Assembly (NCBI GenBank): GCA_919901745.1
Contig: CAKKPP010000012.1
Span: 23,457-87,456 of the forward strand
Length of the DNA: 64,000 bases
Source: Chloroflexota bacterium
GTDB taxonomy: Bacteria; Chloroflexota; Limnocylindria; Limnocylindrales; CSP1-4
Reading direction: 5' to 3'
Both the position numbers and the translations under genes were made by a program. Below are positions 12,776-64,000 of the stretch, piece by piece (position 1 is the first letter of the stretch; each line of letters starts with the position of its first letter). The notes beneath the pieces are model-generated. The model was not told the origin of the DNA. It was given only the letters and a program-made list of their open reading frames with translations, and did no database searches.

Positions 12776-12867
12776 TCAACTGGACCGCCGGTTTCGACGG
12801 TCACGGTGTGTCGGCCGGCCATCCACCTCGCCCGCCCGATGTTGCCTTGAGGAGGTCTCCGCGTTCG

Positions 12868-13248: not shown

Positions 13249-13255
13249 CCGGTCG

Positions 13256-39551: not shown

Positions 39552-39564
39552 ACGCGGAACGCGC

Positions 39565-42248: not shown

Positions 42249-43156
42249 CCGCGGCCACCTGGGTCCGCTCCGGCAAGGTTCGCGACCTGTATCGCGTGGA
42301 CGACGATCGCCTGCTGCTGGTCGCCTCCGATCGGCTCTCGGCGTTCGATGTCGTCCTGCCCACGTCGATCCCGGACAAGGGCCGCATCCTGACCGGCCTG
42401 TCGCGGTTCTGGTTCGATGAAACCCGGCACATCGTGGCGAATCACCTGCTCGACGTCGATCCCGGGTCCGTCCCGCGCGGCACCGTCGAGGAGGACCGGG
42501 AGGCGGACCTGCGCGGCCGGATGATGCTCGTCCGCCGCGCGGACGTCCTGCCGGTCGAGGTCGTGGTTCGCGGCTATCTCGCCGGGTCGGGCTGGAAGGA
42601 TTACCTGGCGACGGGCGTTACGAGCGGCCACCGCCTGCCGGCCGGGATGGTTGAAGGCGACCGCCTGCCCGAACCGATCCTGGCGCCGGCGACCAAGGCG
42701 GCGCCGGGCGAGCACGATGAGAACATCGATCTCGATGCGATGATCGACCTCGTCGGTGGAGAGCTCACCGAACGGGTGCGTGGCATCGCCCTGGAGCTGT
42801 ACCGCCACGGGGCGGCAGCGTGCGAGCGGGCGGGAATCCTCCTCGCCGACACGAAGTTCGAGTTCGGGACGCACCCGGCGACGGGCGAGTTGCTGCTCGT
42901 CGACGAGGTCCTCACGCCGGACTCGTCGAGGTTCTGGGACGCCGCCGCCTATCGCGCGGGCGGCCCCCAGCCGAGCTTCGACAAGCAGTTCGTGCGTGAT
43001 TGGCTCGAGACCCTCGACTGGGACAAGACATCGCCCGGTCCGACGCTCCCGGCGGCCGTCGTCTCCGGGACGCGCGCCCGCTACGTGGAGGCCTATGAGC
43101 GAATCACCGGGGCGAGCTTCGCCCGCTACCTCGAGGAGGACGTCGTCGCCGCATGA
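42245..43156 (+). CDS. purC: SAICAR synthetase
   Basis: 303-aa protein; GKVRDLY ... LLLVASDRLSAFD. Confidence 0.9.
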   Translation: MTAATWVRSGKVRDLYRVDDDRLLLVASDRLSAFDVVLPTSIPDKGRILTGLSRFWFDETRHIVANHLLDVDPGSVPRGTVEEDREADLRGRMMLVRRADVLPVEVVVRGYLAGSGWKDYLATGVTSGHRLPAGMVEGDRLPEPILAPATKAAPGEHDENIDLDAMIDLVGGELTERVRGIALELYRHGAAACERAGILLADTKFEFGTHPATGELLLVDEVLTPDSSRFWDAAAYRAGGPQPSFDKQFVRDWLETLDWDKTSPGPTLPAAVVSGTRARYVEAYERITGASFARYLEEDVVAA

Positions 43157-43443
43157 GCACCCATCGATTTGCCGTCAACGTGACCCCGAAGCCGGGCATC
43201 CTCGATCCCCAGGGCCGGGCCGTGGAGGGGAGCCTCGGACACCTTGGGATCGAGGGCGTGAGCGCCGTACGCGTGGGCCGACGGGTCGAGCTGACGGTCG
43301 CGGCCGTCGATGCGGCCGCCGCGCGGGCGGTCGTCGAGCGATTGGCCGCGGAACTCCTGGCCAACCCGCTCATCGAGGCGTACGTGGTCGAGGAGATCGC
43401 CGGCGCATCCTCGACGCTGAGCATCGGGGCCGGGGAGGGCTGA
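43153..43443 (+). CDS. purS: FGAM synthase PurS subunit
   Basis: 96-aa protein; [25 protein letters not shown]. Confidence 0.9.
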
Positions 43444-43444
43444 C

Positions 43445-44227
43445 GTGCCGGCACGGATCGGGGTGGTGGTCTTCCCGGGCTCCAATTGCGACCGCGACAC
43501 CATGTATGCGCTGTCCCTGGCCGGCGCCGAACCGGTCGAACTGTGGCACGAGCAGGCGTCGCTCGACGCGATCGATGGGGTCATCCTGCCGGGGGGCTTC
43601 GCCTACGGCGACTACCTGCGCGCCGGTGTGATTGCCCGGTTCTCACCCGTCGTGCGCGCCGTGACCGCGTTCGCCGATCGGGGCGGCCTGGTCCTGGGGA
43701 TCTGCAACGGGTTCCAGGTCCTGGCCGAGGCCGGACTCGTTCCTGGGGCGCTCCTGCGGAACCGCGGCCTGCGTTTCCTCGGGCGCGACGTCCACATCGC
43801 CGCGGAGCGCGTGGACACGCCGTTCACCGCCGGCCTGATCGCGGGGCGACCGCTCCGGATGCCGATCGCCCACGGCGAGGGCTGTTATTTCGCCGACGAC
43901 GCGACGCTCGACGAGCTCGAGCGTGACGGGCAGGTCCTGTTTCGCTACGTGGGTGGCGACGGCGCGGCGGTCGGCGCCGACGATGGGGCACGCCACCCCG
44001 ACAACCCGAACGGGAGCCTGCGGGCGATTGCCGGCGTACTGAACACGGCGGGCAACGTCGCCGGTCTGATGCCGCATCCGGAGCGTGCGGCCGAGGGGCT
44101 GCTCGGATCCGACGACGGCGCCGGCATCATTCGCTCGTTCGTGGCGGCCGCAGCGGGGCGAGCGTCCGGTCGCGTGGCGGACCCCAACGTCGCCGCAGCA
44201 GGCGTCGGCGCCGGGAGCGGGCGCTGA
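43445..44227 (+). CDS. purQ: FGAM synthase glutaminase subunit
   Basis: GTG start. Class-I GATase GICNGFQ catalytic Cys, with His and Glu later. Confidence 0.9.
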
Positions 44228-44229
44228 CA

Positions 44230-46581
44230 ATGCCGGTCACCCTCACCGCGGCCTCCGCCGCGGTGACCTCCGCCGCCGTGCCGCTCCATCGGGCCCTCGG
44301 GCTCACCGACGACGAGCTCGACGCGATTCGCGATCGCCTCGGCCGAGATCCGAATCATCTCGAGCTGGCGATCTTCAGCGTGATGTGGAGCGAACATTGC
44401 TCGTACAAGAGCTCGAAGCCGCTCCTGCGCACGCTCCCGACCCAGGGCGAGGGTGTCGTCGCCGGACCCGGCGAAAATGCCGGCGTGATCTCGATCGGTG
44501 ACGGGCTGGCCGTCGCGTTCAAGATCGAATCGCACAACCATCCCAGTGCGGTCGAGCCATACCAGGGCGCGGCGACCGGTGTCGGCGGCATCCTTCGGGA
44601 CATCTTCACGATGGGGGCGCGGCCCATCGCCGTCCTCGATGCCCTCCGGTTCGGCGATCCGGGAGATGTCCGGACACGCCACCTCGTCGATGGCGTCGTT
44701 CGCGGGGTCGGCGGCTACGGCAACTGCGTCGGCGTCCCGACGGTGGGCGGGGAGCTTGTCTTCGACCCCTCATACCAGGGCAATCCGCTCGTCAACGTGA
44801 TGGCCATCGGTCTCCTGGACGAGCGTCGGCTCACGCTCGCCGCCGCTCCCGGCCCGGGCAATCTCGTCATCCTGTTCGGATCGACGACCGGCCGCGATGG
44901 GATCGGGGGTGCATCGGTCCTCGCCTCTTCGACGTTCACGCACGACGACCCCTCGAAGCGCCCATCCGTCCAGGTGGGCGACCCGTTTGCCGAAAAGCTG
45001 CTCATCGAAGCCTCGCTCGAACTCATCGAGCGGGAGCTCGTCGAAGGGCTCCAGGACCTCGGAGCCGGCGGGATCAGCTGTGCTACCTCGGAGACGGCCG
45101 ATCGAGCCGGGACCGGAATGCTCATCGACCTCGATGCGGTGCCTCGTCGAGAGCCGGACATGGCCGCCTACGAGGTGATGATCTCGGAGTCGCAGGAGCG
45201 GATGCTGGCGGTTGTCCGACCGGACCGCGAAGCCGCGGTACGGGAGGTGTGCGCGCGCTGGGGCCTGCCCTGCGCGGTCATCGGCCGGGTGACCGCGGAT
45301 GGCGACATCGCGATCGTGGAGGGCGGGCTGGACGACAGCGGCGCGGCAGCGGCCGGCGCGCGAGAGCTCGCTCGCATCCCCGCCGCCGCCCTCACCTCGG
45401 ACGCCATCGTCCACGACCGAATCGGCGCGGCGCCGGTCCACGCACGGGCCGCACCGGCCCCCGGTATCCCTGAATGGCCCAGCGATGGTCTGCCCGAGCG
45501 CGGCATGGACCCCGGCGCAGTGCTCCTCGCCCTCCTGGGTTCGCCGAATCTCGCGTCCCGTCGCCCGGTCTTCGAGCAGTACGACTCGACCGTCCAGGTC
45601 AACACCGTGGCCGGGCCCGGGCGCGGCGCGGCGGTGCTGCGCGTGAAGGGAACGACCAAGGCACTCGTGGCAACCACCGACGCCAACGCCCCGGTGAGCG
45701 GCATCGATCCATGGCTCGGAGCCGCGCTGAGCGTGGCCGAGGCCTCGCGCAACGTGTCGATCACGGGCGCGCGACCGCTCGGCGTGACGAACTGCCTCAA
45801 CTTCGGCGATCCGACACGACCCGAGGCCTTCTGGCAGCTGTCCGAGGCCGTGCGCGGCCTGGGAGATGCCTGCCGTGCCCTGGGCCTGCCGGTCACCGGC
45901 GGCAACGTGTCGCTGTACAACGAATCCGCCTCCGGCGCGATCCTGCCGACGCCCGAAATTGGGGTCGTCGGAATCCTCGACGACATCGCGACCCTCATCG
46001 GCCCGGCGTTCGTCGAGGCGGGCGATAGCGTGGTGCTGGTCGGCGAGGCTGTTCCCGGGCTCGCCGGGAGCGAGTACGCCCGCCTCGCCGGGGCGGCGCC
46101 CGGCGATGGACCACCGGTCCTCGACCTCGAGCGCGAGGCGGCGCTCCAGAGGTTCATCCGCGAGGCCGTCGCGGGCGGGCTTGCCGCGTCGGCGCAGGAC
46201 GTGTCCGGTGGCGGTCTTGCCGTCGCCCTGGCCGAGGCCGCGATGTGGGGCGGGATCGGCGGCCGGCTGCGGATTCCCGTCGCCAGCTCCCCGGCCGCCG
46301 ACCTCTTCGGCGAGAGTCCCAGCCGGATCGTGGTCACGTGCCGGCCGCGCCGGCTGGAGGCGCTGGTGCTCCTCGCGCGGCAGCACGGCCTGCCGGTCGA
46401 CGAACTGGGCGTCGCGGGCGGCGATCGATTGCTGATCGATCTGGGGAACGGCGGTGCGACCGGTCCGGCAGAAGGCCGGGGCTCCCACGTCGCAGACGCC
46501 CTGGACGTCTCGCTCGCCGACCTGGAGCACGCATGGTCGCGCGGTCTCGGGCGCGCCCTTGGCTGGGACGAGGTGGACTGA
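44230..46581 (+). CDS. purL: FGAM synthase II
   Basis: 783-aa protein; [20 protein letters not shown]. Confidence 0.95.
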
Positions 46582-46583
46582 CG

Positions 46584-48053
46584 ATGTGCGGCGTCTTCGG
46601 GGCCTCGGTTCCTCCCGGATCGGAGGTCAGCGCGGCGGCCGTCGCGGCGCTCGGGTTGTTCGCGCTGCAACACCGGGGCCAGGAATCGGCCGGTGTCGCG
46701 GTGTCCGACGGGAGCCAGCTGATGGTCTACAAGGATCTCGGCATGATCAGCTCGGTGCTGGATGAACGCCGGCTGCCCAGCCTCCGCGGCGATCTGGCGA
46801 TTGCCCACTGCCGCTACTCGACGACCGGCTCGACGGTCTGGGAGAACGCCCAGCCCACGTTCCGCCTGGGCCCACGACGCGCCCTCGCGGTGGGCCACAA
46901 CGGGAACCTCGTGAACACGCGGGAGCTGCTCGATCAACTGCCGGGTGGTCGCGCCCGGCTCCCGGCGAGCACGGACACGGAACTCCTGACCGCGTTGCTT
47001 GCCGACGAGGAGGCCGGCGATCTCGTCGAGGCCCTCCTGCGGGTCCTGCCGCGCGTGCGCGGTGCCTTCAGCCTGGTCGTTCTCGATGAGCGACGGATCG
47101 TCGGCGTCCGTGACCCGCACGGGTTCCGGCCGCTCGTGTTGGGGCGCATCCCGGCTTCGAGCGAACGACCGGCCACGCAGCAGGCCGGCGGCCTGTGGGA
47201 GGACGACGCGGCACGCGACACGTGGGTGCTGTCGTCGGAGACGACGGCCCTCGACATTGTCGGCGCGGACTTCGTGCGCGACGTCGAGCCGGGAGAGCTG
47301 GTGATCCTCGAGGCCGGCATGACCCCGCGATCGGTCCGCTACGCGACGGCCGATCCGGCGCTGTGCGTCTTCGAGCTCATCTACTTCGCGCGGCCCGACT
47401 CGTACATGGAGGGGCGCAACCTCTACGAAGTCCGCCGGCGCATGGGGATGCAGCTGGCCGCCGAACATCCGGTTGAGACCGACCTGGTCATGCCCGTTCC
47501 CGATACCGGCGCTCCGGCCGCGGCCGGTTACGCGGAGGCGTCGGGCATCCCGTATCGCGAGGGCCTCGTCCGCAACCGGTACACCGGGCGCTCGTTCATC
47601 CAGCCATCCGAGACGCTGCGTCACCGGGGCGTGACGATGAAGCTCAACCCGCTGCGTGAAGTGGTTCGCGACAAGCGCCTGACCGTGGTCGACGATTCGA
47701 TCGTGCGCGGGACGACGACCAAGCAGATCGTGGCCCTGCTCAGGAAGGCCGGCGCCGCGGAGGTCCATGTCCGGATCAGCGCCCCGCCCATCTTCCATCC
47801 CTGCTTCTACGGCATCGATACGCAGGTTTCGACAGAACTCATCGCGTCCAGGCTTTCGCCCGAGGAGATCTGCGAATTCATCGGCGCGGATTCGCTCGGC
47901 TATCTCTCGATTCCCGGTGTCCTCGCCGCGCTGGAGCTGCCGTACGAGCAGTTCTGCTTCGCGTGCTTCGATGGGCGCTATCCGGAACCCGTCCCGTACG
48001 ATGTGGCGAGCCGCAAGTTCCTCCTCGAGGAGCCCGTCGCCAGCCGTGGCTGA
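46584..48053 (+). CDS. purF: amidophosphoribosyltransferase
   Basis: ATG at 46584 yields the N-terminal MCGVFG (Ntn Cys1), followed by a PRTase domain. Confidence 0.93.
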   Translation: MCGVFGASVPPGSEVSAAAVAALGLFALQHRGQESAGVAVSDGSQLMVYKDLGMISSVLDERRLPSLRGDLAIAHCRYSTTGSTVWENAQPTFRLGPRRALAVGHNGNLVNTRELLDQLPGGRARLPASTDTELLTALLADEEAGDLVEALLRVLPRVRGAFSLVVLDERRIVGVRDPHGFRPLVLGRIPASSERPATQQAGGLWEDDAARDTWVLSSETTALDIVGADFVRDVEPGELVILEAGMTPRSVRYATADPALCVFELIYFARPDSYMEGRNLYEVRRRMGMQLAAEHPVETDLVMPVPDTGAPAAAGYAEASGIPYREGLVRNRYTGRSFIQPSETLRHRGVTMKLNPLREVVRDKRLTVVDDSIVRGTTTKQIVALLRKAGAAEVHVRISAPPIFHPCFYGIDTQVSTELIASRLSPEEICEFIGADSLGYLSIPGVLAALELPYEQFCFACFDGRYPEPVPYDVASRKFLLEEPVASRG

Positions 48054-49209
48054 CGGTCCAGGATCCAGGGGCCGACCGGGTCGAGCCGGCCGGGACGCCT
48101 ACGTCGCCTCCGGGGTGGACGTTGCGGCCGGCGAGCGTGCGGTGGAGCTGATGCGCGCCGCGGTCGAATCGACCCATCGGCCGGAAGTCGTCGGGAGCCT
48201 GGGCGGCTTTGGCGGCGCGGTGGCCGTTCCTGCCGGGTATCGCGAACCGCTGATCGTCGCCTCGACCGACGGCGTCGGCACGAAGACGGCGATCGCGAGC
48301 GCGCTCGGCCGGTTCGACACGATCGGGATCGATCTCGTGGCGATGTGCGCCGACGATGTCGTGTGCAGCGGTGCTGAGCCGCTGTCCTTCGTCGACTACG
48401 TGGCCGTCGGCAGGCTGGACCCGGACGTCGTCGCCACGCTGGTGGCCGGGGTAGCCGAGGGTTGCCGGCAGGCCGGTTGCGCGCTTGTCGGCGGCGAGAC
48501 GGCCGAACACCCCGGGCTGATGGCCCCGGACGCATTCGACCTCGCGGGCACGTGCATCGGGGTGGTCGAGCGGGAACGCCTGATCGACGCGACGGCACCG
48601 CGCGGTGGCGACACGATCCTCGGCCTGGCGTCATCGGGCCTGCATGCGAACGGGTTCTCGCTGGTTCGGGCGCTCCTGGCTCGTTGGGACGTGAACCTGG
48701 GCGAGCCGTACCAGGAACGCCTCCGGCGCACGCTCGGCGACGAGCCCGCTGATCGCGCGATGACGGTGGAGCCCGAGCACGCCCTGGCAACGATCGGCGA
48801 CGTGCTGCTGACGCCGACGAGGATCTACGCTCGGGCCGTCCTGGGGCTCCGGGCCGCCCTCGAGGAGGCCGGCCACGAGCTGCGGGGCGTCGCCCACGTC
48901 ACCGGGGGCGGTCTTCCCGGCAACGTCGCCCGGATGCTCCCTCCCTCCCTGGGGGCCAGGCTCGACCCGTCACGCTGGCCGATTCCGTCGGTCATGCGCC
49001 TGTTCGGCGCCCTCGGCGGACTGGACGACGCTGAACTTCGAGCCACGTTCAACGGGGGGATCGGGATGGCGATCGCGGTGGCTCCGGCGGCGGCCGACGT
49101 GGCCTCCGCCTGGCTGGCAGCTGCGGGCGTAGCCGCGCACCAGATCGGTCTCGTGGTCGACATCGGTCAGCCGGGCGGCGAGCGCTACACCGAGGGCCGC
49201 ATCGAATGA
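48046..49209 (+). CDS. purM: phosphoribosylformylglycinamidine cyclo-ligase (AIR synthetase)
   Basis: The only in-frame start before the conserved YVASGVDVAAGE is GTG at 48046, overlapping the purF stop by 8 nt. PurM core ASTDGVGTK is present. Confidence 0.8.
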   Translation: MADGPGSRGRPGRAGRDAYVASGVDVAAGERAVELMRAAVESTHRPEVVGSLGGFGGAVAVPAGYREPLIVASTDGVGTKTAIASALGRFDTIGIDLVAMCADDVVCSGAEPLSFVDYVAVGRLDPDVVATLVAGVAEGCRQAGCALVGGETAEHPGLMAPDAFDLAGTCIGVVERERLIDATAPRGGDTILGLASSGLHANGFSLVRALLARWDVNLGEPYQERLRRTLGDEPADRAMTVEPEHALATIGDVLLTPTRIYARAVLGLRAALEEAGHELRGVAHVTGGGLPGNVARMLPPSLGARLDPSRWPIPSVMRLFGALGGLDDAELRATFNGGIGMAIAVAPAAADVASAWLAAAGVAAHQIGLVVDIGQPGGERYTEGRIE

Positions 49210-51443
49210 GCGACGGCCGTCGAATCGCCGTGGGCGTGTCGGGCGCTGGGTCCAACCTCCGCGCACTTGGTGCCGCCGCAGCACGTGACGAGATCGGCGG
49301 ACGCATCGTCCTGGTATTCGCCGACCGACCGTGCCCGGCGCTCGACTGGGCGGCCGAGCAGGGGATCGAGACGGCGCTCATCCCCGGCGGGAACGACGAC
49401 GCGCTGGCCGAGACCCTCCTGGCCGTGGCGCCCGATGCCGTCGTCCTGGCCGGTTACCTCCGGATCGTCGGCGCGCGCGTGCTCGGGGCGTTCGGTGGCC
49501 GGATCCTCAACACGCATCCGTCGCTCTTGCCGGCATTCCCGGGCGCGCACGCGGTGCGCGACGCGCTGGCTCACGGCGTGGCCGTGACGGGCTGCACCGT
49601 GCACCTGGTGGACGACACGCTCGATGGCGGGCCGATCGTCGCCCAGGAGGCGGTTCCGATCCTCGCCGGTGACGACGAGGCGTCCCTGCACGAGCGAATC
49701 CGGGCGGTGGAGCACCGCCTCCTGCCGCGGGCCACGGCGCTCCTGCTCGCCGGCGCCCTGTCCGTGATCGGCCGGCATGTCGTCGTCGACGCGGCGACGG
49801 CCGATGGCGGACTCCCCGTTCCGCGCCGCGCACTGCTCTCGGTCAGCGACAAGGCCGGGCTCGCGGATCTCGCCGGTGGGCTCGTCGCACGCGGTTTCGA
49901 GCTGGTGTCCACCGGAGGCACCGCCGCCGCGCTTCGAGAGGCGGGCATGCTCGTGACCGACGTGGCCGCGGTGACGGGCTTCCCCGAGATGCTCGACGGG
50001 CGCGTCAAGACACTCCATCCGCGCATCCACGCGGGAATCCTCGCCGACAGGCGATCGAGCGCACACCGGGCGGCCCTCATGGCTGCGGCGATCGCTCCGT
50101 TCGAGCTCGTCGTCGTCAACCTCTATCCGTTCGGCGCCGCCGCCGAGCGGCCGGGGATCGCCCTGGACGAGCTGATCGAGGAGATCGATATCGGCGGCCC
50201 GGCCCTGATCCGCGCCGCCGCGAAGAACCAGGCCAGCGTCGCGATCGTGACCTCGCCGGCCCGTTATGCGCACGTTCTCACCGTCCTCGCGGAGGAGGGG
50301 AGCGTGCCGGCCGGACTGCGGGCTGCCCTGGCGATCGAGGCGTTTCGCCACACGGCTGCCTACGACGCGCGGATCGCAGCGGAGCTGCCCTGCCACCTCC
50401 ACGAAGCCGGGTTGACCCTTCCGGACGAGCCGGGGCTGCCCACGTCCTCCGATCCCTTCCCGCAGAGCCTGACGATCGAACTCGAGAAGGTCGAGACGCT
50501 TCGCTACGGCGAGAACCCGCACCAGCGGGCTGCGCGCTATCGACGGCCGGGCCGAGCCGGCGGCGCAGGACCCTTCGCATCCTTCGACCCGCCGCTCCAG
50601 GGCAAGGCGCTCAGCTACAACAACGTGCTCGACGCGTCGGCGGCGGCGGCGCTTGCGCGGACACTGCGTGGCCCGGCCGCGGTGATCGTCAAGCACATGA
50701 ACCCGTGTGGCGCGGCCCAGCGTCCGACGCTCGCCGCGGCCTGGGGCGCAGCGCTCGCCGGCGACCCGGTCTCCGCGTTCGGTGGCGTGGTTGCGCTCAC
50801 CCGCACGGTCGACGGCGAGGTGGCGCGAGCGCTCGTCGCCATCTTCCTCGAGGTGGTGGTGGCACCGGCGTTCGACGACGACGCGCTGGGGGTCCTGGCC
50901 GCCAAACCAAACCTCCGGCTCATTGTCGACCCGGATGTCGCCCTGGACAGCGCACCCGGATGGCCCGAGCGGACGGCGTCAATCCGAACGGCCGGGGGCG
51001 CGGTCCTCGTGTCGACGCCGGATACCGTCGAGGACGATCCGAGCGGGTGGATGACCGTCACCAGCCGCGAGCCGACAGACCGCGAGCGCGCCGACCTCCA
51101 TCTCGCGTGGCGGCTCGTCCGCGGGGTCACCTCGAACGCCATCGTCCTCGTCTGCGACGGGGCGCTCATCGGGCTCGGATCAGGCCAGACGAGCCGTGTC
51201 GACGCGGCGCGCCAGGCCGTGGCCAAGGCCCGATCGATCGCCGGCGACGACGCCCTCCGCGGTGCGGTCTGCGCATCGGACGCGTTCTTTCCGTTCCCGG
51301 ATGCCGTCGAAGCCTGCCTGGACGCCGGCGTGACCGCGTTCGTCCATCCCGGTGGCTCCCTGAACGACGCAAAGGTGACCGTGGTCGCGAACGCCGCCGG
51401 CGCTGCAGTGCTCGTAACGGGTACGAGGCACTTCCGGCACTGA
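49206..51443 (+). CDS. purNH: fused phosphoribosylglycinamide formyltransferase / AICAR transformylase-IMP cyclohydrolase (PurN-PurH)
   Basis: Single uninterrupted 745-aa ORF. Residues 1-~200 are PurN (RIAVGVSGAGSNL ... NTHPSLLPAFPG). From ~205 it is PurH (RALLSVSDKAGL ... RVKTLHPRIHAGIL ... full AICARFT/IMPCH). ATGA overlap with purM. Confidence 0.8.
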   Translation: MSDGRRIAVGVSGAGSNLRALGAAAARDEIGGRIVLVFADRPCPALDWAAEQGIETALIPGGNDDALAETLLAVAPDAVVLAGYLRIVGARVLGAFGGRILNTHPSLLPAFPGAHAVRDALAHGVAVTGCTVHLVDDTLDGGPIVAQEAVPILAGDDEASLHERIRAVEHRLLPRATALLLAGALSVIGRHVVVDAATADGGLPVPRRALLSVSDKAGLADLAGGLVARGFELVSTGGTAAALREAGMLVTDVAAVTGFPEMLDGRVKTLHPRIHAGILADRRSSAHRAALMAAAIAPFELVVVNLYPFGAAAERPGIALDELIEEIDIGGPALIRAAAKNQASVAIVTSPARYAHVLTVLAEEGSVPAGLRAALAIEAFRHTAAYDARIAAELPCHLHEAGLTLPDEPGLPTSSDPFPQSLTIELEKVETLRYGENPHQRAARYRRPGRAGGAGPFASFDPPLQGKALSYNNVLDASAAAALARTLRGPAAVIVKHMNPCGAAQRPTLAAAWGAALAGDPVSAFGGVVALTRTVDGEVARALVAIFLEVVVAPAFDDDALGVLAAKPNLRLIVDPDVALDSAPGWPERTASIRTAGGAVLVSTPDTVEDDPSGWMTVTSREPTDRERADLHLAWRLVRGVTSNAIVLVCDGALIGLGSGQTSRVDAARQAVAKARSIAGDDALRGAVCASDAFFPFPDAVEACLDAGVTAFVHPGGSLNDAKVTVVANAAGAAVLVTGTRHFRH

Positions 51444-55363: not shown

Positions 55364-57019
<1,656 letters not shown>

Positions 57020-57818: not shown

Positions 57819-58676
57819 GTGGGTCGAATTCGGGGTGCCTCGCTGACTGCCGCGATCGTGACGCTGGCCATGGTCGCCGGCGCCTGTGCATCGAAGCCCG
57901 ACCTCACCGATCCGCGCGAGATCCTCGACGGTGCCGTTGCCCAACTGGACGCCGCGAAGACCGTTCGGCTGCAGCTCGATGTGTCGGGGGCAATCGCCCT
58001 GGACCTGCTCGGGACGGGGTCCGCCCGCCCGATGCTCCTCGAAGGCACGACGCTGACCGCGGATCTCGACATCTCAGGCGGCAAGGCGAAGGTGACGTTC
58101 GCGGCCCCGGCGCTCCTGGGGTTGACCGGCGAACTCCTCGCCCCGGGTGGGCGTGCCTACCTCAAGATGAGCCTGACCGGACCGAAGTACGTGCCCCTCG
58201 ATTCCGGCGGCGCGCCGAGTCCGGACGCATCCCCGGGCCCCCTGTCACTCGCCGGGCTGACGAACCTTCTGAACGATCCGTCGGTGACGGCGACGAAGGT
58301 CGACGATGTCGACTGCGCCGGCGGGCGCTGCTACCGGATCCGGATCGAGGTCGACCCCTCCGCGATCGATCTCGGCCTGCCGGATCTCGGGGCGCTGTCG
58401 GGGCTGCTCGGACTGCCGGGCGCGGCATCGCCGGGACCCGACAGCGGGTCCGGGTCGTTGGACGGGCCCATCGTCATCTTCGCCAACGTCGCGAAGGACA
58501 CCCTTCGGCCGGTCACGCTGGAGTCGGACGTCGTGCTCGGCGAGTCGGCGACGCTCGAGCTGCTGCTCACGCTGTCGGCGTGGGGGGAATCGATCACGGT
58601 CGAGGCGCCACCGGCGGACCAGGTCGGTGAGCCGGGCGATCTGCCGTTCCCGTTCGGTCTCCCGTCCGTTCCGTAG
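57819..58676 (+). CDS. LolA-like / LppX-LprAFG-family lipoprotein (putative)
   Basis: GTG at 57819 gives signal peptide and lipobox RIRGASLTAAIVTLAMVAGAC. The body resembles lipid-binding LprG-type lipoproteins. Confidence 0.5.
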   Translation: MGRIRGASLTAAIVTLAMVAGACASKPDLTDPREILDGAVAQLDAAKTVRLQLDVSGAIALDLLGTGSARPMLLEGTTLTADLDISGGKAKVTFAAPALLGLTGELLAPGGRAYLKMSLTGPKYVPLDSGGAPSPDASPGPLSLAGLTNLLNDPSVTATKVDDVDCAGGRCYRIRIEVDPSAIDLGLPDLGALSGLLGLPGAASPGPDSGSGSLDGPIVIFANVAKDTLRPVTLESDVVLGESATLELLLTLSAWGESITVEAPPADQVGEPGDLPFPFGLPSVP

Positions 58677-58722
58677 CCGCCTCGCCGAGGGATCGCCGAA
58701 GGTCGCGTCGAGCGCCCCGACC

Positions 58723-58728
58723 TACAAT
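58723..58728 (+). promoter_or_regulatory. -10 box TACAAT positioned for a leaderless pcrA transcript
   Basis: TACAAT ends 6 nt before the GTG at 58735. There is no RBS. Confidence 0.3.
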
Positions 58729-58734
58729 GGGCAC

Positions 58735-61476
58735 GTGAGTCCCACCACCCCCCGCGGCGGTCGCCGCGGCACGCCGCTCGGCACCCCGGAGCCGATCGGC
58801 ACGCACCTCGACGACCTGCCTGAGGTGTCGGGCGCGCCGCTCGAACCGGACTGGTTGCGCGACGCCGCAGCGGATCCGGCGGACGCGGCCGCTCCGCTGG
58901 ATCCCGCCGCAATCAAGGCCGCGGAGATCGCCCACCGTGCAGCGGCCGCCCGACGCGCCGAGGAGATCGTCGCCAGCCTGAACCCGGAGCAGGCGCGCGC
59001 GGTGACGACGACCGACGGGCCGCTCCTGATCCTGGCCGGTGCCGGGAGTGGCAAGACGCGGGTGCTCGCGCACCGGATCGCGCACCTCATCGGCGTCCAG
59101 GGCGTTGCGCCGTGGAAGATCCTCGCCGTCACCTTCACCAACCGGTCGGCACGCGAGCTTCGAGAGCGGATCATCACGCTGGTCGGCGAACGCGGTCGCG
59201 AGGTCGAGGCCGGCACGTTCCATGCGCTCTGCGCCCGCCTGCTTCGACGCGAAGGTGAGGCGATCGGCATCGATCGCCGGTACGTCATCTACGACACCGA
59301 CGACCAGCAGGCCCTGATGAAGCAGCTCCTGCGCGACGAGGACCTGCCGGCGACCGGCGAGTTTCGCCCATCGGCGGTCCTGGGCGCCATCAGTCGGGCG
59401 AAGAACGAGATGCTCGACGCGACGTTTCTCGCGGACAACGCGATCGATCGTCACCAGCGTGTCGTCGCGACCCTCGCGCGGCGCTACCAGGCGCGGCTGC
59501 GCGAGGTCGGCGCGCTCGACTTCGACGACCTGCTGCTCGAGGCGGTCCGCCTCTTCGACGAGGCACCGGCCGTTCTGGAGCGGTACCAGGCCCGCTGGCG
59601 CTACCTCCACGTCGACGAGTACCAGGACACGAACCGGGCGCAGTACCTGTGGGTCAAGGCGCTCGCTGCCGCGCATCGCAACCTGTGCGTGGTCGGTGAC
59701 GACGACCAGTCCATCTACTCCTGGCGCGGCGCGGACCTTCGGAACATCCTTGATTTCGAACGCGATTGGCCGGATGCCACGGTCGTCAAGCTCGAACAGA
59801 ACTATCGCTCGACGCAGTTGATCCTCGACGCGGCCCATGCGGTCGTGTCGCGCAATGCCGGGCGCACGGACAAGAAGCTGTGGACCGCCACCGCCGGCGG
59901 CGCTCCCATCCAGCGGTTCGAGGCCTACAACGAGGAGGAGGAGGCCGAGTGGATCGCGCGCCAGGCCGAGGGCCTGATCGGCGGGCGGGGATCGGTCCTG
60001 ACCCGGCGCGCCGACGACGACACGGCGTCCACGCGCGCCCAGGACATCGCCGTGATGTACCGGATGAACGCCCAGTCGCGCGCGATCGAAGAATCCTTCC
60101 TGCGCTACGGCCTGCGCTACCAGCTGGTGGGCGGCACGCGGTTCTACTCGCGGCGCGAAGTCAAGGACGCCCTGGCGTACCTGCGGGTGATCCGCTCGGA
60201 CGTGGATGTCGTCAGCTTCGAGCGGATCATCAACGTCCCGTCGCGCTCGATCGGCGAGCGAACACTGGAGAGCCTCCGCGAGGTGGCGGCGCGAGATGGT
60301 TTCTCGACATGGACGGCCATCGAACGCGCCGCGGCGGGCGACGTGCCGGCCATCGCCGCCCGTGCTCGCGCCGCGCTGGCCGACTTTGCCACCCTGGTGC
60401 GCCGGTTGCGTTCCCTGATCGGGGAGTTGGCCCTGCCGGAGCTCCTCGACGCCGTGCTCGAGCGCACGGGCTACCGGGCGATGCTGGCCGACGGCAGCGA
60501 GGACGGCGAGGAGCGTTGGGCAAACCTCCTCGAGCTGCGCCAGGTCACGACGCGCTACGACGACCTGTCGCCCGAGGACGCGCTGGACCGGCTGCTCGAG
60601 GAAACGGCCCTGGTGGCCGATCAGGACAGCTACGAGGGGTCCGCCGACGCCGTGACCCTGATCACCCTCCATGCCGCCAAGGGGCTCGAATTCCCGGTCG
60701 TGTTCATTGCCGGGCTCGAGGAGGGCCTCCTGCCGCACAGCCGTGCCCTCGACGATGAGAAAGAGCTGGAAGAGGAGCGGCGGCTCGCCTACGTCGGGAT
60801 CACCCGCGCCAAGCGCCGGCTGTACCTGTCGCATGCGTGGCGGCGGGCGACCTGGGGGATGGGCCAGGCGTCCGTGCCGTCCCGGTTCCTCCTGGAGATC
60901 CCGGCCGAGCTCATGGTCGGCCCGCAGCTCGGTGCTGACCCTGACGGGGCCGGGGAGGGTCCGCTGGATCTCGATCTCGTCTTCGGAGCCCGCCGCACGA
61001 GCCGATTTGGACGACCCGGGCGCGCCGGTGGGGCCTTCCGAGAGGGCAGCGGCACGCCCGGGGCACCTCGGAACGGGACAGCGTTCCGACCGGCGCGCGA
61101 CCTTGCCGCGCGCCGATCCGCGTTTGCCGGGGGGGCACGATCCGGCTCGCCCGGAGGGGACGTCGAACCTTGGGACGGAGCCGCTGGCGATGGGGAATCG
61201 GCCGCGGGCGATCATCTCGACGCGGACGGCGAGGACCATGCGGGCACGATGCGGGGCCGAACCGCCCGCCCGGCGCCCGCGAAGCGCCCCATCGTTCCCG
61301 GTGAGCGCCGATTCCGCGATGGCGACCGCGTGCGCCACGCCCGCTGGGGGGATGGGATCGTCGTGACCTCCAAGCTCACTCGCACCGACGAGGAGGTCGT
61401 TGTCGCATTCCGCGATCCACAGGTCGGGCGCAAGACGATGCTGGCCAGCCTGGCGAATCTCGACACGGTCGGCTGA
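58735..61476 (+). CDS. pcrA: ATP-dependent DNA helicase PcrA/UvrD
   Basis: LNPEQARAV ... ILAGAGSGKTRVL (Walker A) ... full SF1 motifs ... C-terminal extension. The start is uncertain (GTG at 58735 or GTG at 58825). Confidence 0.85.
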   Translation: MSPTTPRGGRRGTPLGTPEPIGTHLDDLPEVSGAPLEPDWLRDAAADPADAAAPLDPAAIKAAEIAHRAAAARRAEEIVASLNPEQARAVTTTDGPLLILAGAGSGKTRVLAHRIAHLIGVQGVAPWKILAVTFTNRSARELRERIITLVGERGREVEAGTFHALCARLLRREGEAIGIDRRYVIYDTDDQQALMKQLLRDEDLPATGEFRPSAVLGAISRAKNEMLDATFLADNAIDRHQRVVATLARRYQARLREVGALDFDDLLLEAVRLFDEAPAVLERYQARWRYLHVDEYQDTNRAQYLWVKALAAAHRNLCVVGDDDQSIYSWRGADLRNILDFERDWPDATVVKLEQNYRSTQLILDAAHAVVSRNAGRTDKKLWTATAGGAPIQRFEAYNEEEEAEWIARQAEGLIGGRGSVLTRRADDDTASTRAQDIAVMYRMNAQSRAIEESFLRYGLRYQLVGGTRFYSRREVKDALAYLRVIRSDVDVVSFERIINVPSRSIGERTLESLREVAARDGFSTWTAIERAAAGDVPAIAARARAALADFATLVRRLRSLIGELALPELLDAVLERTGYRAMLADGSEDGEERWANLLELRQVTTRYDDLSPEDALDRLLEETALVADQDSYEGSADAVTLITLHAAKGLEFPVVFIAGLEEGLLPHSRALDDEKELEEERRLAYVGITRAKRRLYLSHAWRRATWGMGQASVPSRFLLEIPAELMVGPQLGADPDGAGEGPLDLDLVFGARRTSRFGRPGRAGGAFREGSGTPGAPRNGTAFRPARDLAARRSAFAGGARSGSPGGDVEPWDGAAGDGESAAGDHLDADGEDHAGTMRGRTARPAPAKRPIVPGERRFRDGDRVRHARWGDGIVVTSKLTRTDEEVVVAFRDPQVGRKTMLASLANLDTVG

Positions 61477-61691
61477 TCGCTCGGTCACGCGGCGGACGTT
61501 CGGTCACACGCGCCGCGCCGTGGCGCAACCGTCGGATCCAGCGACGCCGATGAGAATGGCAGGAAAACTCTGTCTCGCGGTCCGTGGGTCGCGTTCGATT
61601 GCGGCTCAGCTCAGCCTTGCGTCGGTGTTTCCCATGCGTCAAACTGCGGTCAGTCCGACCGGAGCATTGCTTGGAGGAGGCCGAGGTGGCG

Positions 61692-63086
61692 ATGACCGAC
61701 CTGGAGGCGTTCGTCAACCAGGACGGGCGCGACGCAGCCATCCGCGACGTCCGTCGCCAGATCGACAAGGCCGGCGTCGAGTACATGTACTTCCAGTTCG
61801 TCTCGGTCACGGGGCGGATCATGGGCAAGGGAGTCCCGTCGGCGCACTGGGAGCGGATCGCGGCGAGCGGATTCCAGCTCGTGTACGGCTCGACGGCCAA
61901 TCTCTTCACCGACCGCAAGGGCAACTACATCGGCTACGGCCCGGAAGCGCGCGAGCTCGTCGGGATGCCGGAGCCGGACACGTTCTGCGTCCTGCCCTGG
62001 GACACCAGGACGGCGCGGGTGTTCTGCACGCTCTTCCGCGGCCGTGAGGAGGAAGTGGATGGCGGCGCGTACCTGACGTCCGATGCGCGCGGCAACCTCA
62101 AGCGGATCCACACGGCCTTCGAGGAGGCCACCGGCTACCACATGCGGATCGGCTGCGAGCCCGAGATGATGTGGCTCAAGGTCGATTCGTCCGGGAAGCC
62201 CACGGTCGAGGGGATGACCAAGCCGTACTGCTATCACATCGACCAGTTCTCGGAGCTCCAGCCGCTCATTCACAAGGTCATGGAGTACGGCAAGGCGATG
62301 GGCCTGGACATGATCCAGGGCGACCATGAGGATGCGCCGGGCCAGCTCGAGCTGAACTTCATGTTCGACCGGGCCGAGCTGACCGCCGACCGGCTCACGA
62401 CCTACCGCCAGATCTGCCGACAGGTCGGGCGCGAGATGGGCGCGTTCGCGTGCTTCATGCCCAAGCCGTTCATGGGCGTCTCGGCCAACGGCTGCCACCA
62501 CAACTTCTCGCTGTGGCGCGGCGAGGACAACCTGTTCATGCCGGAAGGCGACGATCCGCAGATGCCCGGCATCGTCGGTCTGCATGCGGCCGGCGGGGTG
62601 CTCGAGCACATGCGGGCCCTCACCGCGATCACCGCCCCGACCGTGAACTCGTATCGCCGCTTCTGGGACATGGGCTTCTGGGCGCCCGTCTTCGCCGACT
62701 GGGGCTTCCAGAACCGGACCACGGCGCTCCGCGTGAGCGCCCCGGGACGATTCGAGTACCGCTCGGTCGACTCGGCCGTCAACCCGTACCTCTCGTTCGC
62801 CGCACTGCTGGCGGCCATGCGCGACGGGCTGGACCGAAAGCTCGATCCTGGCGAGCCCGAGGAGCGCAACATCTACGACGCGATCGCCGGCGGCAAGCAG
62901 GTAACGAAGATCCCGTTCAGCCTCGGGGAGGCGCTCGAGGCCCTGGATCGCGACGAGGTCGTCAAGTCGGCGCTCCCCGGCGACATGTATCGCGTCTTCA
63001 TGCACTACAAGCGCGACGAGTGGGAGCGCTTCCTGTCGACCGTGACCGAGTGGGATATCGAGACGTACCTCGACATCCTGCCCTGA
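61692..63086 (+). CDS. glutamine synthetase-family gamma-glutamyl-amine ligase (GmaS/GlnA-like)
   Basis: ATG at 61692 with GGAGGAGG upstream. 465-aa protein with a GS catalytic domain (CEPEMMW ... NGCHHNFSLW ... SYRRFWD ... NRTTALR). Confidence 0.8.
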   Translation: MTDLEAFVNQDGRDAAIRDVRRQIDKAGVEYMYFQFVSVTGRIMGKGVPSAHWERIAASGFQLVYGSTANLFTDRKGNYIGYGPEARELVGMPEPDTFCVLPWDTRTARVFCTLFRGREEEVDGGAYLTSDARGNLKRIHTAFEEATGYHMRIGCEPEMMWLKVDSSGKPTVEGMTKPYCYHIDQFSELQPLIHKVMEYGKAMGLDMIQGDHEDAPGQLELNFMFDRAELTADRLTTYRQICRQVGREMGAFACFMPKPFMGVSANGCHHNFSLWRGEDNLFMPEGDDPQMPGIVGLHAAGGVLEHMRALTAITAPTVNSYRRFWDMGFWAPVFADWGFQNRTTALRVSAPGRFEYRSVDSAVNPYLSFAALLAAMRDGLDRKLDPGEPEERNIYDAIAGGKQVTKIPFSLGEALEALDRDEVVKSALPGDMYRVFMHYKRDEWERFLSTVTEWDIETYLDILP

Positions 63087-63114
63087 CGATCGACCCAACT
63101 GGAGGACGGCCAGC

Positions 63115-64000
63115 GTGTGTGGCATCGCCGGGATCATTCATCGCAACCAGACGTCCGACGTCGGCACCGAGATGACGGCAATGCTCCAGTCCATGAAGCA
63201 TCGTGGCCCGGATTCGACGGGCTACGCGCTCTTCGGCGAGCCGACCGGACGAACCCTGATCCGGTTCAAGCTGGCCGACGCGAACGATCCCCGCGACTTC
63301 GACTTTCGGGCGCGCCTCCAGCGGAACCGCGCGCGCGTCGAGGCGCGCCTGCGGGAGATCGGTGCGTCGATCGATCGCATCGACGCCGAGACCGAGTACG
63401 CGTTTCGCGCCGTGGTGCGCTACAACGGCGACCTCAAGACCCTCGCCGACTATCTCGAGGACATCCCCGGCTGCGAGGTCCTGTCCCTGGGCACGTCACT
63501 CGAGATTGTCAAGGATCTGGGAGACGCCAACGAAGTCGCGAGCCAGTACGAGCTGCGCGGCTTCCAGGGAACCCACGCGATCGGGCACGTCCGGATGGCC
63601 ACGGAATCTGATGTCGACATCTCGGGCGCCCACCCCTACTGGGCCTACCCGTTTGCCGATGTCGCGGTGGTTCACAACGGACAACTGACGAACTACTTCC
63701 AATGGCGCCGTCGCCTCGAGCGTTCCGGGCATCGCTTCCAGTCCGAGTGCGACTCGGAGATCATCGCGGTCTACCTGGCCGAGAAGATGGCCAATGGGTC
63801 CGGCCTCAAGGACGCGATGGAGGAGAGCCTCGACGAGCTCGATGGCGTCTTCACCTACATGGCGGTCACCAAGGACTCGCTCGGGGTGGCCAAGGACGAG
63901 ATGGCGGCCAAGCCGCTCGTCCTCTACGAATCGGACGACATGGTCGTGATGGCCTCCGAGGAGATCGCGATCCGGGCGGTCCTCGACCGTGAGATCGATA
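63115..64000 (+). CDS. class-II glutamine amidotransferase, GlxB/MgsA-like (partial, runs off window)
   Basis: GTG then Cys: VCGIAGIIHRNQ (Ntn Cys1). GGAGG RBS 9 nt upstream. No stop before 64000. Confidence 0.75.
   Translation, partial: MCGIAGIIHRNQTSDVGTEMTAMLQSMKHRGPDSTGYALFGEPTGRTLIRFKLADANDPRDFDFRARLQRNRARVEARLREIGASIDRIDAETEYAFRAVVRYNGDLKTLADYLEDIPGCEVLSLGTSLEIVKDLGDANEVASQYELRGFQGTHAIGHVRMATESDVDISGAHPYWAYPFADVAVVHNGQLTNYFQWRRRLERSGHRFQSECDSEIIAVYLAEKMANGSGLKDAMEESLDELDGVFTYMAVTKDSLGVAKDEMAAKPLVLYESDDMVVMASEEIAIRAVLDREID

Follow-up and report, generated by a model that had tools for sequence, protein, structure and literature searches.

Methylated amines make up a significant pool of nitrogen and C1 units in soils, aquifers and oceans. 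Their consumers are tracked with gmaS as a marker gene (PMC7948447). At the edge of a 64,000-nt stretch of DNA from a groundwater Chloroflexota bacterium (hereafter the window), a gene for a glutamine synthetase (GS)-like protein is followed by a class-II amidotransferase gene that runs past the end. Do these genes belong to such a pathway? An initial annotation had proposed a γ-glutamylamide/N-methylglutamate (NMG)-like module, and our analysis supports this view, since the downstream genes proved to be related and the GS-like protein does not cluster with canonical GlnA. The two genes most likely form the 5′ end of a seven-gene operon that allows this bacterium to use methylamine-type compounds as a nitrogen source. 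The system is most likely a widespread, uncharacterised variant of the known NMG pathway with an extra small protein, h143, of no known fold.

Results

The genes at the window edge begin a seven-gene operon

The ENA contig L085 matches the window's final 7,738 nt at 100% identity without gaps and adds 12.7 kb; its coordinates were converted as window = L085 + 56262 (Table 1). As had been anticipated, the module continues past position 64000, with both glxC and glxD downstream of glxB. The gene order is GS-like ligase, glxB, glxC, glxD, h143, GAT1 and DAO444, and then ligA. Starts and stops overlap between glxB and glxC (13 nt), glxD and h143 (4 nt) and the amidotransferase gene and DAO444 (4 nt), which indicates a single operon, and the tight spacing of the ligase gene and glxB is consistent with their co-transcription.

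Table 1. Features of the operon and its surroundings, in window coordinates
Feature	Position	Strand	Located on	Remarks
Shine-Dalgarno-like GGAGGAGG	61673..61681	+	window	Read from sequence; ~10 nt 5′ of the GS-like ATG
Putative GS-family γ-glutamyl-amine ligase (GmaS-like)	61692..63086	+	window	464 aa plus stop; Pfam Gln-synt_C
Intergenic spacer	63087..63114	+	window	28 nt, with GGAGGA at 63101-63106; from sequence
glxB/mgsA-like class-II (Ntn) amidotransferase	63115..64000	+	window	Codons 1-295 of 309; cut by the window end
glxC	64032-64829		L085	265 aa, GXGXG-motif protein
glxD	64854-66266		L085	470 aa, FMN Glu_synthase domain
h143	66263-66694		L085	143-aa conserved protein
GAT1 (type-1 GATase)	66700-67431		L085	
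DAO444	67428-68762		L085	444-aa DAO-family flavoprotein, SoxB/MgdA-like
ligA	68868-70991		L085	

In the ORF list, the GS-like frame reaches further 5′, to a GTG at 61584 (500 aa). Because homologues of 464–466 aa align from residue 1 or 2, we favor the ATG at 61692 as the start; with the stop TGA at 63084–63086, the protein has 464 aa and not the 465 first reported, although its placement in the GS family holds. The glxB frame begins with GTG 63115, reads V-CGIAGIIHRN and stays open for 295 codons up to the window end, and the full-length protein in identical contigs has 309 aa. Its description as an Ntn class-II amidotransferase (GATase) starting with VCGIAG, 28 nt after the ligase gene, was correct, as the product matches GATase_6 and GATase_7 (E = 6e-20 and 9e-18). 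These matches, and that of the ligase to Gln-synt_C (PF00120; E = 1.3e-86, 291 bits against a cut-off of 24), show that both ORFs are genuine and did not arise by chance. An antisense ORF at 61650–63137 (495 aa) was rejected as a gene, since such ORFs are a common artefact of high GC content.

With pcrA/uvrD before it and ligA after it, and housekeeping genes in the rest of the window, the module is accessory-looking by position, as had been remarked, but not by composition: its GC and GC3 are like those of its flanks, and recent horizontal transfer into this genome is unsupported. An Rfam scan of the whole window found one tRNA only and no riboswitch 5′ of the operon. Scanning 61300–64000 for promoters and terminators yielded none, including no sigma-70-like promoter in the 215-nt spacer after uvrD/pcrA, and that spacer contains no stable RNA structure (z = −0.38) and no Rfam family.

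The ligase has a GmaS-type pocket but lies outside the GmaS family

The ligase belongs to the glutamine synthetase superfamily, with the metal- and phosphate-binding residues E156, E213, E220, H269, E355, R342, R347 and R357 all present. It is not a type I GS, since it scores 271.6 bits against the GlnA model TIGR00653 (cut-off 429.15). By size it had been assigned to the GmaS/GlnA3/GlnA4 class; however, it falls outside the canonical GmaS/GlnT family, scoring 319.5 bits against TIGR03105 (GmaS/GlnT, type III glutamate-ammonia ligase), below the equivalog cut-off of 469.6, whereas canonical paralogues in related loci score 571–616. The score for the PuuA model NF045547 (GGputSyn) is 246.6, against a cut-off of 650. 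The ligase is 31–33% identical to the two solved GmaS structures (7cql and 9qur), 26% identical to PuuA and ~32% identical to archaeal and Bacillus-type GS, such that identity to GmaS is no better than to GSI-α. In neighbor-joining trees, it forms its own clade, apart from both the solved-GmaS clade and canonical GlnA (100% bootstrap), which agrees with the initial view that it is not GlnA. This clade is sister to P450-associated γ-glutamyl-amine ligases (100% bootstrap), within a superclade that contains PuuA. The NCBI twin of the ligase (MEK6720339.1) is named [quoted passage not shown].

The active site is more telling. The RhGmaS pocket residues K30′, Y147, Q175, D177, E179, E186 and N188 correspond to K46′, Y181, Q209, D211, E213, E220 and N222 of the ligase, and catalytic R312 corresponds to R342; none of these pocket and catalytic positions varies among the 81 family members. 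Where RhGmaS has Asp177, GS has His and the ligase has Asp. All 81 members also have Trp330 in place of the GS flap Glu (E304 in Bs, E327 in St) and Val64 in place of Asp50′. In a first alignment, the segment LFTDRKGNY appeared to be a retained Asp50′ loop, but a wider alignment with more relatives placed GS Asp50′ opposite Val64, and the segment is an insertion common to PuuA- and P450-associated ligases. Judged by these residues, the ligase carries the functional signature of GmaS, which marks small-alkylamine ligases generally and is no proof of methylamine, since the P450-associated sister ligases carry identical pocket residues.

GlxBCD, h143, GAT1 and DAO444

The three genes after the ligase encode an Ntn GATase with an N-terminal Cys, a GXGXG protein and an FMN Glu_synthase protein, the gene content of MgsABC/GlxBCD beside a GS-like ligase. 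They constitute a putative NMG-synthase-type GlxBCD set. Where variant and canonical sets occur in the same loci, they are 29–32% (GlxB), 37–39% (GlxC) and 55–56% (GlxD) identical. GlxD retains Cys at the positions of the 3Fe-4S site in GltB; these cysteines were discarded as a variant-specific trait because canonical GlxD carries them as well. The JGI name for GlxD cluster-mates is "methylamine---glutamate N-methyltransferase subunit C".

Searches with h143 found no relative in Pfam, NCBIfam or the PDB, and thus no known family or fold, yet it has >7,000 homologues. Mean column identity is 81% over 36 close homologues, each at least 73% identical to the query. Four apparent GlxD-h143 fusions (P0241, P0252, P0294 and P0321) are frameshift merges with Arg/Pro-rich out-of-frame stretches and, being artefacts, provide no Rosetta-stone evidence.

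GAT1 has a Cys-His-Glu triad and scores 18.9 for Peptidase_C26, below the cut-off of 20.5. The best sequence matches of DAO444 are SoxB-β, DMGDH and DMGO; by fold, L-proline dehydrogenase β comes first, followed by SoxB-β, DMGO and DMGDH, although the model is poor over residues 245–378 and the FAD domain chiefly accounts for the fold matches. JGI names 75–79% relatives of DAO444 "methylglutamate dehydrogenase subunit A". By BLAST, DAO444 resembles E. coli PuuB in the FAD motif alone, and GAT1 shows no similarity to PuuD. The expectation of a sox-like gene downstream was borne out: a single MgdA/SoxB-like gene lies three genes after glxD. There is no four-subunit mgdABCD here.

Related loci are widespread and often adjoin methylated-amine genes

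At least 595 species-level genomes carry GS-GlxBCD-h143; most belong to the Actinomycetota (Acidimicrobiia, Actinomycetes and Thermoleophilia) and some to the Chloroflexota. Metagenomic homologues of the ligase number in the thousands. Among the carriers are the cultured strains Pseudonocardia acaciae DSM 45401, Actinomycetospora cinnamomea DSM 45771 and Tamaricihabitans halophyticus DSM 45765. The core order GS>glxB>glxC>glxD>h143 is kept in nearly all of 80 related loci, each from a different species. Among the 60 loci of at least 15 kb, h143 is present in 58, DAO444 in 42 and a GAT1-type amidotransferase in about 10, and 33 have methylated-amine or C1 genes within ±10 kb (Pfam-checked). Pfam-checked neighbors in the 81 scanned loci include the Tdm architecture (DUF1989+GCV_T; 25 loci), formate-THF ligase (20), SoxB/D/A/G-like (mgdABCD-like) proteins (14–18), Tmm-like FMO (11) and Amt (5). 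A Peptidase_C26 (PuuD-family-like) gene lies within 10 kb in 10 related loci, and in some of them (L007 and L012, for example) between the amidotransferase and DAO444 genes.

In five compact islands of Actinomycetes (L042, L046, L063, L071 and L081), an incomplete SoxBDAG-like set adjoins GS-glxBCD-h143; Tdm and Fhs precede it in three (L042, L063 and L071), four of the five have an XRE regulator, and no canonical gmaS is in view. This layout is that of known NMG clusters, and we count it in favor of an NMG-type function. Canonical TIGR03105 GmaS accompanies the variant in 7 related loci, several of which (L069, L026 and L029 among them) have a second GlxBCD set, which speaks against simple redundancy of the two systems. 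In the genome studied here, tmm, tdm, soxADG, fhs and amt are absent from the 64-kb window and the 12.7 kb downstream. Our literature searches found nothing specific on this variant in Actinobacteria or Chloroflexi, and no experimental study of any member in the searchable literature.

Discussion

We infer the substrate, the chemistry of every step and the roles of h143, GAT1 and DAO444 from what was observed directly, namely how the genes are ordered, which domains they encode, which residues are conserved and which genes accompany them. We consider it probable (roughly 60%) that the operon encodes a variant γ-glutamylmethylamide/NMG route for methylamine or a very similar short alkylamine, serving mainly as a nitrogen source. 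The GS-like enzyme would use ATP to join the amine to the γ-carboxyl of glutamate, as suggested by the metal- and phosphate-binding residues of GS and by an amine pocket of the GmaS type without the ammonia site. The Ntn amidotransferase GlxB, which has Cys at its N terminus, would cleave the γ-glutamyl amide; GlxD, with FMN and a Cys4 Fe-S site, would transfer the amine onto a glutamate/2-oxoglutarate skeleton; and GlxC, a GXGXG β-helix, would provide a scaffold for GlxD. The products would be N-alkyl-glutamate and ammonia, as in the MgsABC reaction. SoxB/MgdA-like DAO444 could oxidize the N-methyl C-N bond, regenerating glutamate and yielding a C1 unit. h143 may join the GlxBCD complex as an additional subunit or help to assemble it, and GAT1 may be a γ-glutamyl-amide hydrolase that trims the pool.

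It is possible, though we think it unlikely, that the same chemistry serves another small amine (dimethylamine, ethylamine, isopropylamine, ethanolamine or the like) and that methylamine falls to canonical GmaS/MgsABC wherever the two systems coexist. The 7 loci with both ligases, several with two GlxBCD sets in a single island (e.g., that of Tamaricihabitans, L069), fit this idea, as do the sister ligases of Ipu-like alkylamine clusters with their identical pocket and the likeness of DAO444 to dimethylglycine oxidase/dehydrogenase. One form would be a dimethylamine step through γ-glutamyl-dimethylamide or N,N-dimethylglutamate, demethylated by DAO444. Such a step is apparently absent in Actinomycetota with Tmm and Tdm, and no dmm-like genes were recognized among the recurrent neighbors, a weak check made without a Dmm reference sequence. 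However, in most loci no GS/GlxBCD set other than the variant accompanies the Tdm, mgd-like and Fhs genes, the pocket matches RhGmaS at 7/7 methylamine-site positions, and coexistence is not decisive, since high- and low-affinity paralogues for one substrate are common.

We would give similarly modest odds to a bolder proposal, that the GS-like protein, GlxBCD, h143 and DAO444 form a distinct amine-oxidation machine that does not duplicate the NMG pathway and in which h143, with a new fold, is an obligatory fourth subunit. Such a machine might supply the "missing" conversion of dimethylamine to methylamine in Actinomycetota with Tmm and Tdm, or DAO444 might oxidize the γ-glutamyl amide and pass electrons to the Fe-S/FMN protein GlxD. 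If so, methylated amines would be turned over through undescribed chemistry in soil, groundwater, sponge and marine Actinomycetota and Chloroflexota.

An improbable alternative is Puu/Ipu-style γ-glutamylation without N-methylglutamate, in which DAO444 would oxidize the alkyl group while it is glutamylated. γ-Glutamylmethylamide would give glutamine and formaldehyde, the type-1 amidotransferase or GlxB would release glutamate, and GlxBCD might act as a glutamate synthase on DAO444 electrons. A ligase, a flavoprotein oxidase and a type-1 amidotransferase do follow the logic of PuuA, PuuB and PuuD; the ligase falls inside the PuuA-containing superclade; Peptidase_C26 genes recur near related loci; and GlxD has the Fe-S cysteines that take external electrons in GltB. 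Against this, these cysteines are nothing special to the variant, DAO444 and GAT1 do not resemble PuuB (beyond the FAD motif) and PuuD, aldehyde dehydrogenase and P450 are absent from the operon, and few loci have the amidotransferase. Least plausible of all is ammonium assimilation by a true GS ("GSIII/GlnT"-type) and GlxBCD as a split glutamate synthase: although the domain content equals GS plus three GltB domains and canonical glnT-glxBCD of Mycobacterium smegmatis is induced under nitrogen starvation via GlnR, the Trp, Val and Asp replacements of GS residues, the score under the GlnA cut-off and the lack of a GltD-like electron-donor subunit all oppose it, and it does not explain why Tdm, Tmm and mgd-like genes recur nearby.

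If the operon is a variant NMG route, marker surveys built on proteobacterial GmaS could miss a large guild, since the ligase falls below the cut-off of the curated GmaS model yet is found in so many genomes. As a very conserved protein, h143 is a cheap and well-defined target for biochemistry. The single islands that carry variant and canonical sets offer a direct genetic test of whether two distinct glutamate-mediated amine pathways operate in bacteria.

How does the operon compare with known systems? It shares folds and domains with GS-GOGAT (GSI-α plus glutamate synthase), including the match of GlxD to the GltB FMN domain and its Fe-S cysteines, but differs in lacking the ammonia-site residues and in having a GltB split over three genes without a GltD partner. 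As in the E. coli Puu pathway, a ligase of the same broad superclade as PuuA occurs with a flavoprotein oxidase and a type-1 amidotransferase-like hydrolase; unlike in Puu, the ligase fails NF045547, no relationship of DAO444 to PuuB or of GAT1 to PuuD is detectable, and there is no PuuC.

The closest annotated relatives of the ligase that we found (44–51% identity) are the P450-associated γ-glutamyl-alkylamide synthetases, which we regard as putatively IpuC-type on their gene content. IpuC reportedly acts in the isopropylamine pathway of Pseudomonas sp. KIE171 (de Azevedo Wasch et al. 2002, cited in PMC1713258). These synthetases, encoded in clusters of Paracoccus sp. TOH (p2), Ruegeria sp. 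SCSIO 43209 (plasmid) and Rhodococcus opacus 1CP (pR1CP1) and as glnA-xplB in Gordonia sp. KTR9, share the pocket residues and the 9-aa insertion. Their neighbors are cytochrome P450, ferredoxin, aldehyde dehydrogenase and γ-glutamyl hydrolase, with no glxBCD or h143, whereas P450 and ferredoxin are absent from our operon and its flanks.

The last comparison is with the NMG module of GmaS and MgsABC (with or without MgdABCD) in Methylocella silvestris, Methyloversatilis universalis, Methylobacterium extorquens and Ruegeria pomeroyi. The variant departs from it in its ligase, which is below the TIGR03105 cut-off and in a separate clade, in its divergent GlxBCD and in the extra h143. Instead of the four subunits of MgdABCD, it has a lone SoxB/MgdA-like DAO444, with no SoxA, SoxD or SoxG in the window or 12.7 kb downstream, although related loci often have SoxA/D/G-like genes. 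What it shares with the NMG module is a GS-family ligase beside three genes that correspond, domain by domain (amidotransferase, GXGXG and FMN), to the large subunit of glutamate synthase, the loss of GS ammonia-site residues from a ligase that has all RhGmaS amine-pocket and catalytic residues, and, in its relatives, Tmm-like, Tdm-like, SoxBDAG-like, Fhs and Amt neighbors.

An operon that continues past the window end

The exact protein of the GS-like ligase, a glutamine-synthetase-family enzyme, was found on several public contigs, and we took one of these, L085 (a 120-kb ENA contig of the 'Hain_H41' sample), as the continuation of the window; over its final 7,738 nt the window matches this contig at 100% identity without gaps (window coordinate = L085 coordinate + 56262). 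The initial annotation had expected a glxB-type module to run past 64000 with glxC and glxD, and both are present on L085. The sox-like gene that it proposed to look for is there as well, in the form of DAO444, a SoxB/MgdA-like flavoprotein (see table). As the intergenic distances from the ligase through DAO444 are 28, -13, 24, -4, 5 and -4 nt, these genes form one operon, a co-transcribed set consisting of the ligase, a split GltB-like enzyme (GlxBCD), a small conserved protein (h143), a thiol amidotransferase (GAT1, type 1) and the flavoprotein. Beyond ligA lie a DinB_2 gene, a GNAT gene, gatA, an aminotransferase gene and gatB. In NCBI, the seven operon proteins are MEK6720339-45 of a 'Chloroflexota bacterium' MAG and bear generic names, h143 being 'hypothetical protein AABZ33_06680'. 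The nearest genome among the matches listed is a Candidatus Limnocylindrales MAG, with a 91% identical ligase and the same uvrD-GS synteny.

Features of the window and of its continuation on L085 (extrapolated coordinates marked e)
Feature	Position	Strand	Description
Core-looking genes	2491-5162, 11663-14695, 38205-51443, 55394-57019, 58627-61476		N-terminal motifs
tRNA gene	6589-6662	+	sole Rfam match in the 64-kb window
pcrA/uvrD	58627-61476 e		949 aa; helicase
Direct repeat	61478-61510		CGCTCGGTCACGCG / CGTTCGGTCACACG; start-to-start 19 nt
GS-like ligase	61692 (ATG)-63086 (TGA)	+	464 aa; Pfam Gln-synt_C, E = 1.3e-86
Ligase-glxB spacer		+	28 nt; GGAGGA inside
glxB	63115 (GTG)-64044 e	+	309 aa; class-II amidotransferase
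glxC	64032-64829 e		265 aa; GXGXG
glxD	64854-66266 e		470 aa; Glu_synthase/FMN, E = 2e-92
h143	66263-66694 e		143 aa; no family
GAT1	66700-67431 e		243 aa; type-1 amidotransferase, PRK07053-like
DAO444	67428-68762 e		444 aa; DAO family; best NCBIfam soxB
ligA	68868-70991 e		707 aa; DNA ligase

The ligase, first given as 465 aa, is one residue shorter when counted. Because its homologues measure 464-466 aa and their alignments begin at residue 1-2, we place its start at the ATG and dismissed an alternative GTG (61584) in the ORF listing; a GGAGGAGG ribosome-binding motif can be read ~10 nt 5′ of the ATG. The glxB frame reads V-CGIAGIIHRN, including the obligatory N-terminal Cys, has no stop in the 295 codons that the window covers and matches GATase_6/GATase_7 at 6e-20 / 9e-18 (Pfam). 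The ORF listing also has a 1056-aa frame from 58306 that overshoots the helicase gene as annotated on public contigs.

The remaining window looks like housekeeping DNA (ftsA/ftsZ, gcvT-H-P, a purine-biosynthesis run, groEL, pcrA/uvrD), as assigned from N-terminal motifs and one tblastn match rather than family scans, and none of tmm, tdm, soxA/D/G, fhs or amt was found in the 64 kb. By position the module is an insertion among core genes, yet it is compositionally native, since its GC (0.65-0.69) and GC3 (0.84-0.94) match those of the flanking genes. Its relatives, with protein identities of up to 84-90% (window 61692-64000 against L006-L084), are Actinomycetota, which suggests transfer between phyla at some point, with codon composition now native. 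The spacer 5′ of the operon lacks conservation in L005, the Limnocylindrales relative. Directly 3′ of the pcrA/uvrD stop, this spacer holds a direct repeat, which may be a regulator site or a chance occurrence.

The ligase belongs to a lineage beside GmaS

The ligase scores below cut-off with the models for GmaS/GlnT (TIGR03105; 319.5 bits, cut-off 469.6), GlnA (271.6, cut-off 429) and PuuA-type enzymes (246.6, cut-off 650). Compared with solved structures, it is about equally distant from GmaS (9qur, 220 bits; 7cql, 188 bits) and GSI-alpha (~212 bits). Six related loci encode a second GS-like protein that passes TIGR03105 (571-616 bits), some with its own glxBCD, and on re-scanning by tblastn seven loci proved to have a canonical GmaS-like gene; that of L069 scores ~418 bits against 7cql and 9qur. 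Since canonical GmaS stands alongside in related loci, the window ligase represents a paralogous lineage, and we rejected the reading that it is simply "the actinobacterial GmaS". Among Actinomycetes, the variant shares an island with canonical GmaS and/or a second GlxBCD in L069 (Tamaricihabitans halophyticus), L026, L029, L040, L068, L083, L010, L011 and L024; L026 and L029 also have a third, PuuA-like GS paralogue beside an APC permease.

The closest annotated relatives, identified by plasmid tblastn, are 44-51% identical. They are encoded on Paracoccus sp. TOH p2, a Ruegeria sp. plasmid and R. opacus 1CP pR1CP1, in clusters with genes for cytochrome P450, ferredoxin, aldehyde dehydrogenase and a type-1 amidotransferase or gamma-glutamyl hydrolase. 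Further matches were to S. clavuligerus pSCL4 and the Gordonia KTR9 glnA-xplB region; the GS-like part of the latter (pGKT2, 159730-160869 of the record) is 44% identical, lies beside P450 genes and has Phe at the flap position. In coarse neighbor-joining trees on BLOSUM distances, drawn without a true IpuC, the ligase family forms one clade (100%) whose sister group is the P450-associated ligases (100%). It falls within a larger clade that also contains E. coli PuuA (100%), and canonical GmaS forms a separate clade (100%); deeper nodes are weak.

Distribution and gene neighborhood

Ligase homologues number more than 7,790, and a scan in which each GTDB species was represented by one genome confirmed at least 595 relatives. 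The best 80 of these are 73-91% identical to the ligase and nearly all from Actinomycetota (Acidimicrobiia, Actinomycetes, Thermoleophilia, Gaiellales), with Pseudonocardia acaciae, Actinomycetospora cinnamomea and T. halophyticus as cultured carriers. In tblastn with the seven proteins, the order GS>glxB>glxC>glxD>h143 is kept almost everywhere, and GlxD is 83-93% identical in nearly all loci. We predicted ORFs in every locus, grouped them into clusters, checked representatives by Pfam and then re-scanned by tblastn. Among the 60 loci of at least 15 kb, h143 is present in 58, DAO444 in 42, GAT1 in 10 and canonical GmaS in 7; at least one methylated-amine/C1 gene lies within 10 kb in 33, and a Tdm-like or Tmm-like gene occurs in 22. 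Recurrent neighbors across all 81 scanned loci are Tdm-like (DUF1989+GCV_T; 25), formate-THF ligase (20), XRE-cupin regulator (19), SoxB/D/A/G-like (14-18), Tmm-like FMO (11) and Amt (5) genes. The module is recurrently linked to genes of trimethylamine, TMAO, N-methyl amino acid and folate-C1 metabolism. As neighbors, DAO444 and a SoxA-like gene tend to replace one another (5/37/8/10, Fisher p = 0.013), a tendency confounded by taxonomy.

In five Acidimicrobiia (L030, L051, L052, L076, L080), a second SoxB-like flavoprotein of ~395-400 aa stands downstream of DAO444, directly beside a Tmm-like gene, followed in L052, L076 and L080 by a Tdm-like gene. No dmm-like genes were recognized among the recurrent neighbors, and this flavoprotein could be their dimethylamine-oxidizing enzyme. 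Six other loci (L006, L012, L015, L019, L066, L082) have, near the module, a second Tdm-like (DUF1989+GCV_T) gene paired with one for a PhyH-family dioxygenase, in several cases (e.g., L006, L019, L082) with a gene of cluster c22.

Active sites and probable chemistry

In GS, the flap Glu and Asp50′ serve ammonium; GmaS has Trp300 and Ala48′ there, Asp177 and Glu186 as bases, Arg312, and a pocket of Tyr147, Gln175, Asp177, Glu179, Glu186, Asn188 and Lys30′ (PMC7948447). The ligase equivalents, invariant in 81/81 family members, are Trp330, Val64, Asp211, Glu220, Arg342, Tyr181, Gln209, Glu213, Asn222 and Lys46, whereas GS carries Glu, Asp and His at the three key positions. The ligase has lost the ammonia site and has a GmaS-type amine pocket. 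It differs from GmaS in Asn271 for the adenine-binding His237, in Ile for Tyr174 and in a 9-residue insertion (LFTDRKGNY, residues 71-79).

Among the partners, GlxD aligns with the GltB FMN domain and retains three Cys where GltB has its 3Fe-4S site, together with a fourth Cys, as do the canonical GlxD paralogues. GAT1 has the G-x-C-x-G nucleophile and H-x-E motifs. DAO444 matches SoxB-beta, DMGDH and DMGO by sequence, in its N-terminal half only, and its modeled fold, unreliable at residues 245-378, resembles L-proline dehydrogenase beta, SoxB-beta, DMGO, DMGDH and MSOX (E 1e-16 to 1e-14, TM ~0.57). Many relatives 75-79% identical to DAO444 are named 'methylglutamate dehydrogenase subunit A' by JGI.

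We favor methylamine/N-methylglutamate (NMG) chemistry, with a probability of about 0.6. The ligase would join amine and Glu with ATP into a gamma-glutamyl amide, which GlxBCD (with h143) would convert to N-alkyl-glutamate and NH3; DAO444 would then regenerate glutamate, releasing formaldehyde or CH2-THF, and GAT1 may hydrolyze gamma-glutamyl amides. The active-site signature favors a small alkylamine over ammonia, and it does not single out methylamine, since the P450-associated sisters have it too; the same chemistry on another small amine, the dimethylamine route included, is a possible though less probable reading. Puu/Ipu-like oxidation of the glutamylated amine is improbable. A plain GS-GOGAT pair, for which the ligase would need to use ammonia, is very improbable.

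A variant of a known module

The initial annotation named the kind of module correctly, and that kind was already known. The pathway assignment is not new either, as automated KEGG-based names already label parts of the module mgsC and mgdA. What is new is h143, the paralogy and the status as a variant: within the searchable literature we found no description of this lineage. Its ligase falls outside the GmaS family, its GlxBCD is divergent, h143 (without known fold) is invariably linked, the MgdA-like flavoprotein stands alone, and the lineage shares single islands with canonical sets. In five Actinomycetes loci (L042, L046, L063, L071, L081), an incomplete SoxBDAG-like set adjoins GS-glxBCD-h143, with an XRE regulator in four and with Tdm and Fhs preceding the set in L042, L063 and L071. 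Known NMG clusters have this same layout.
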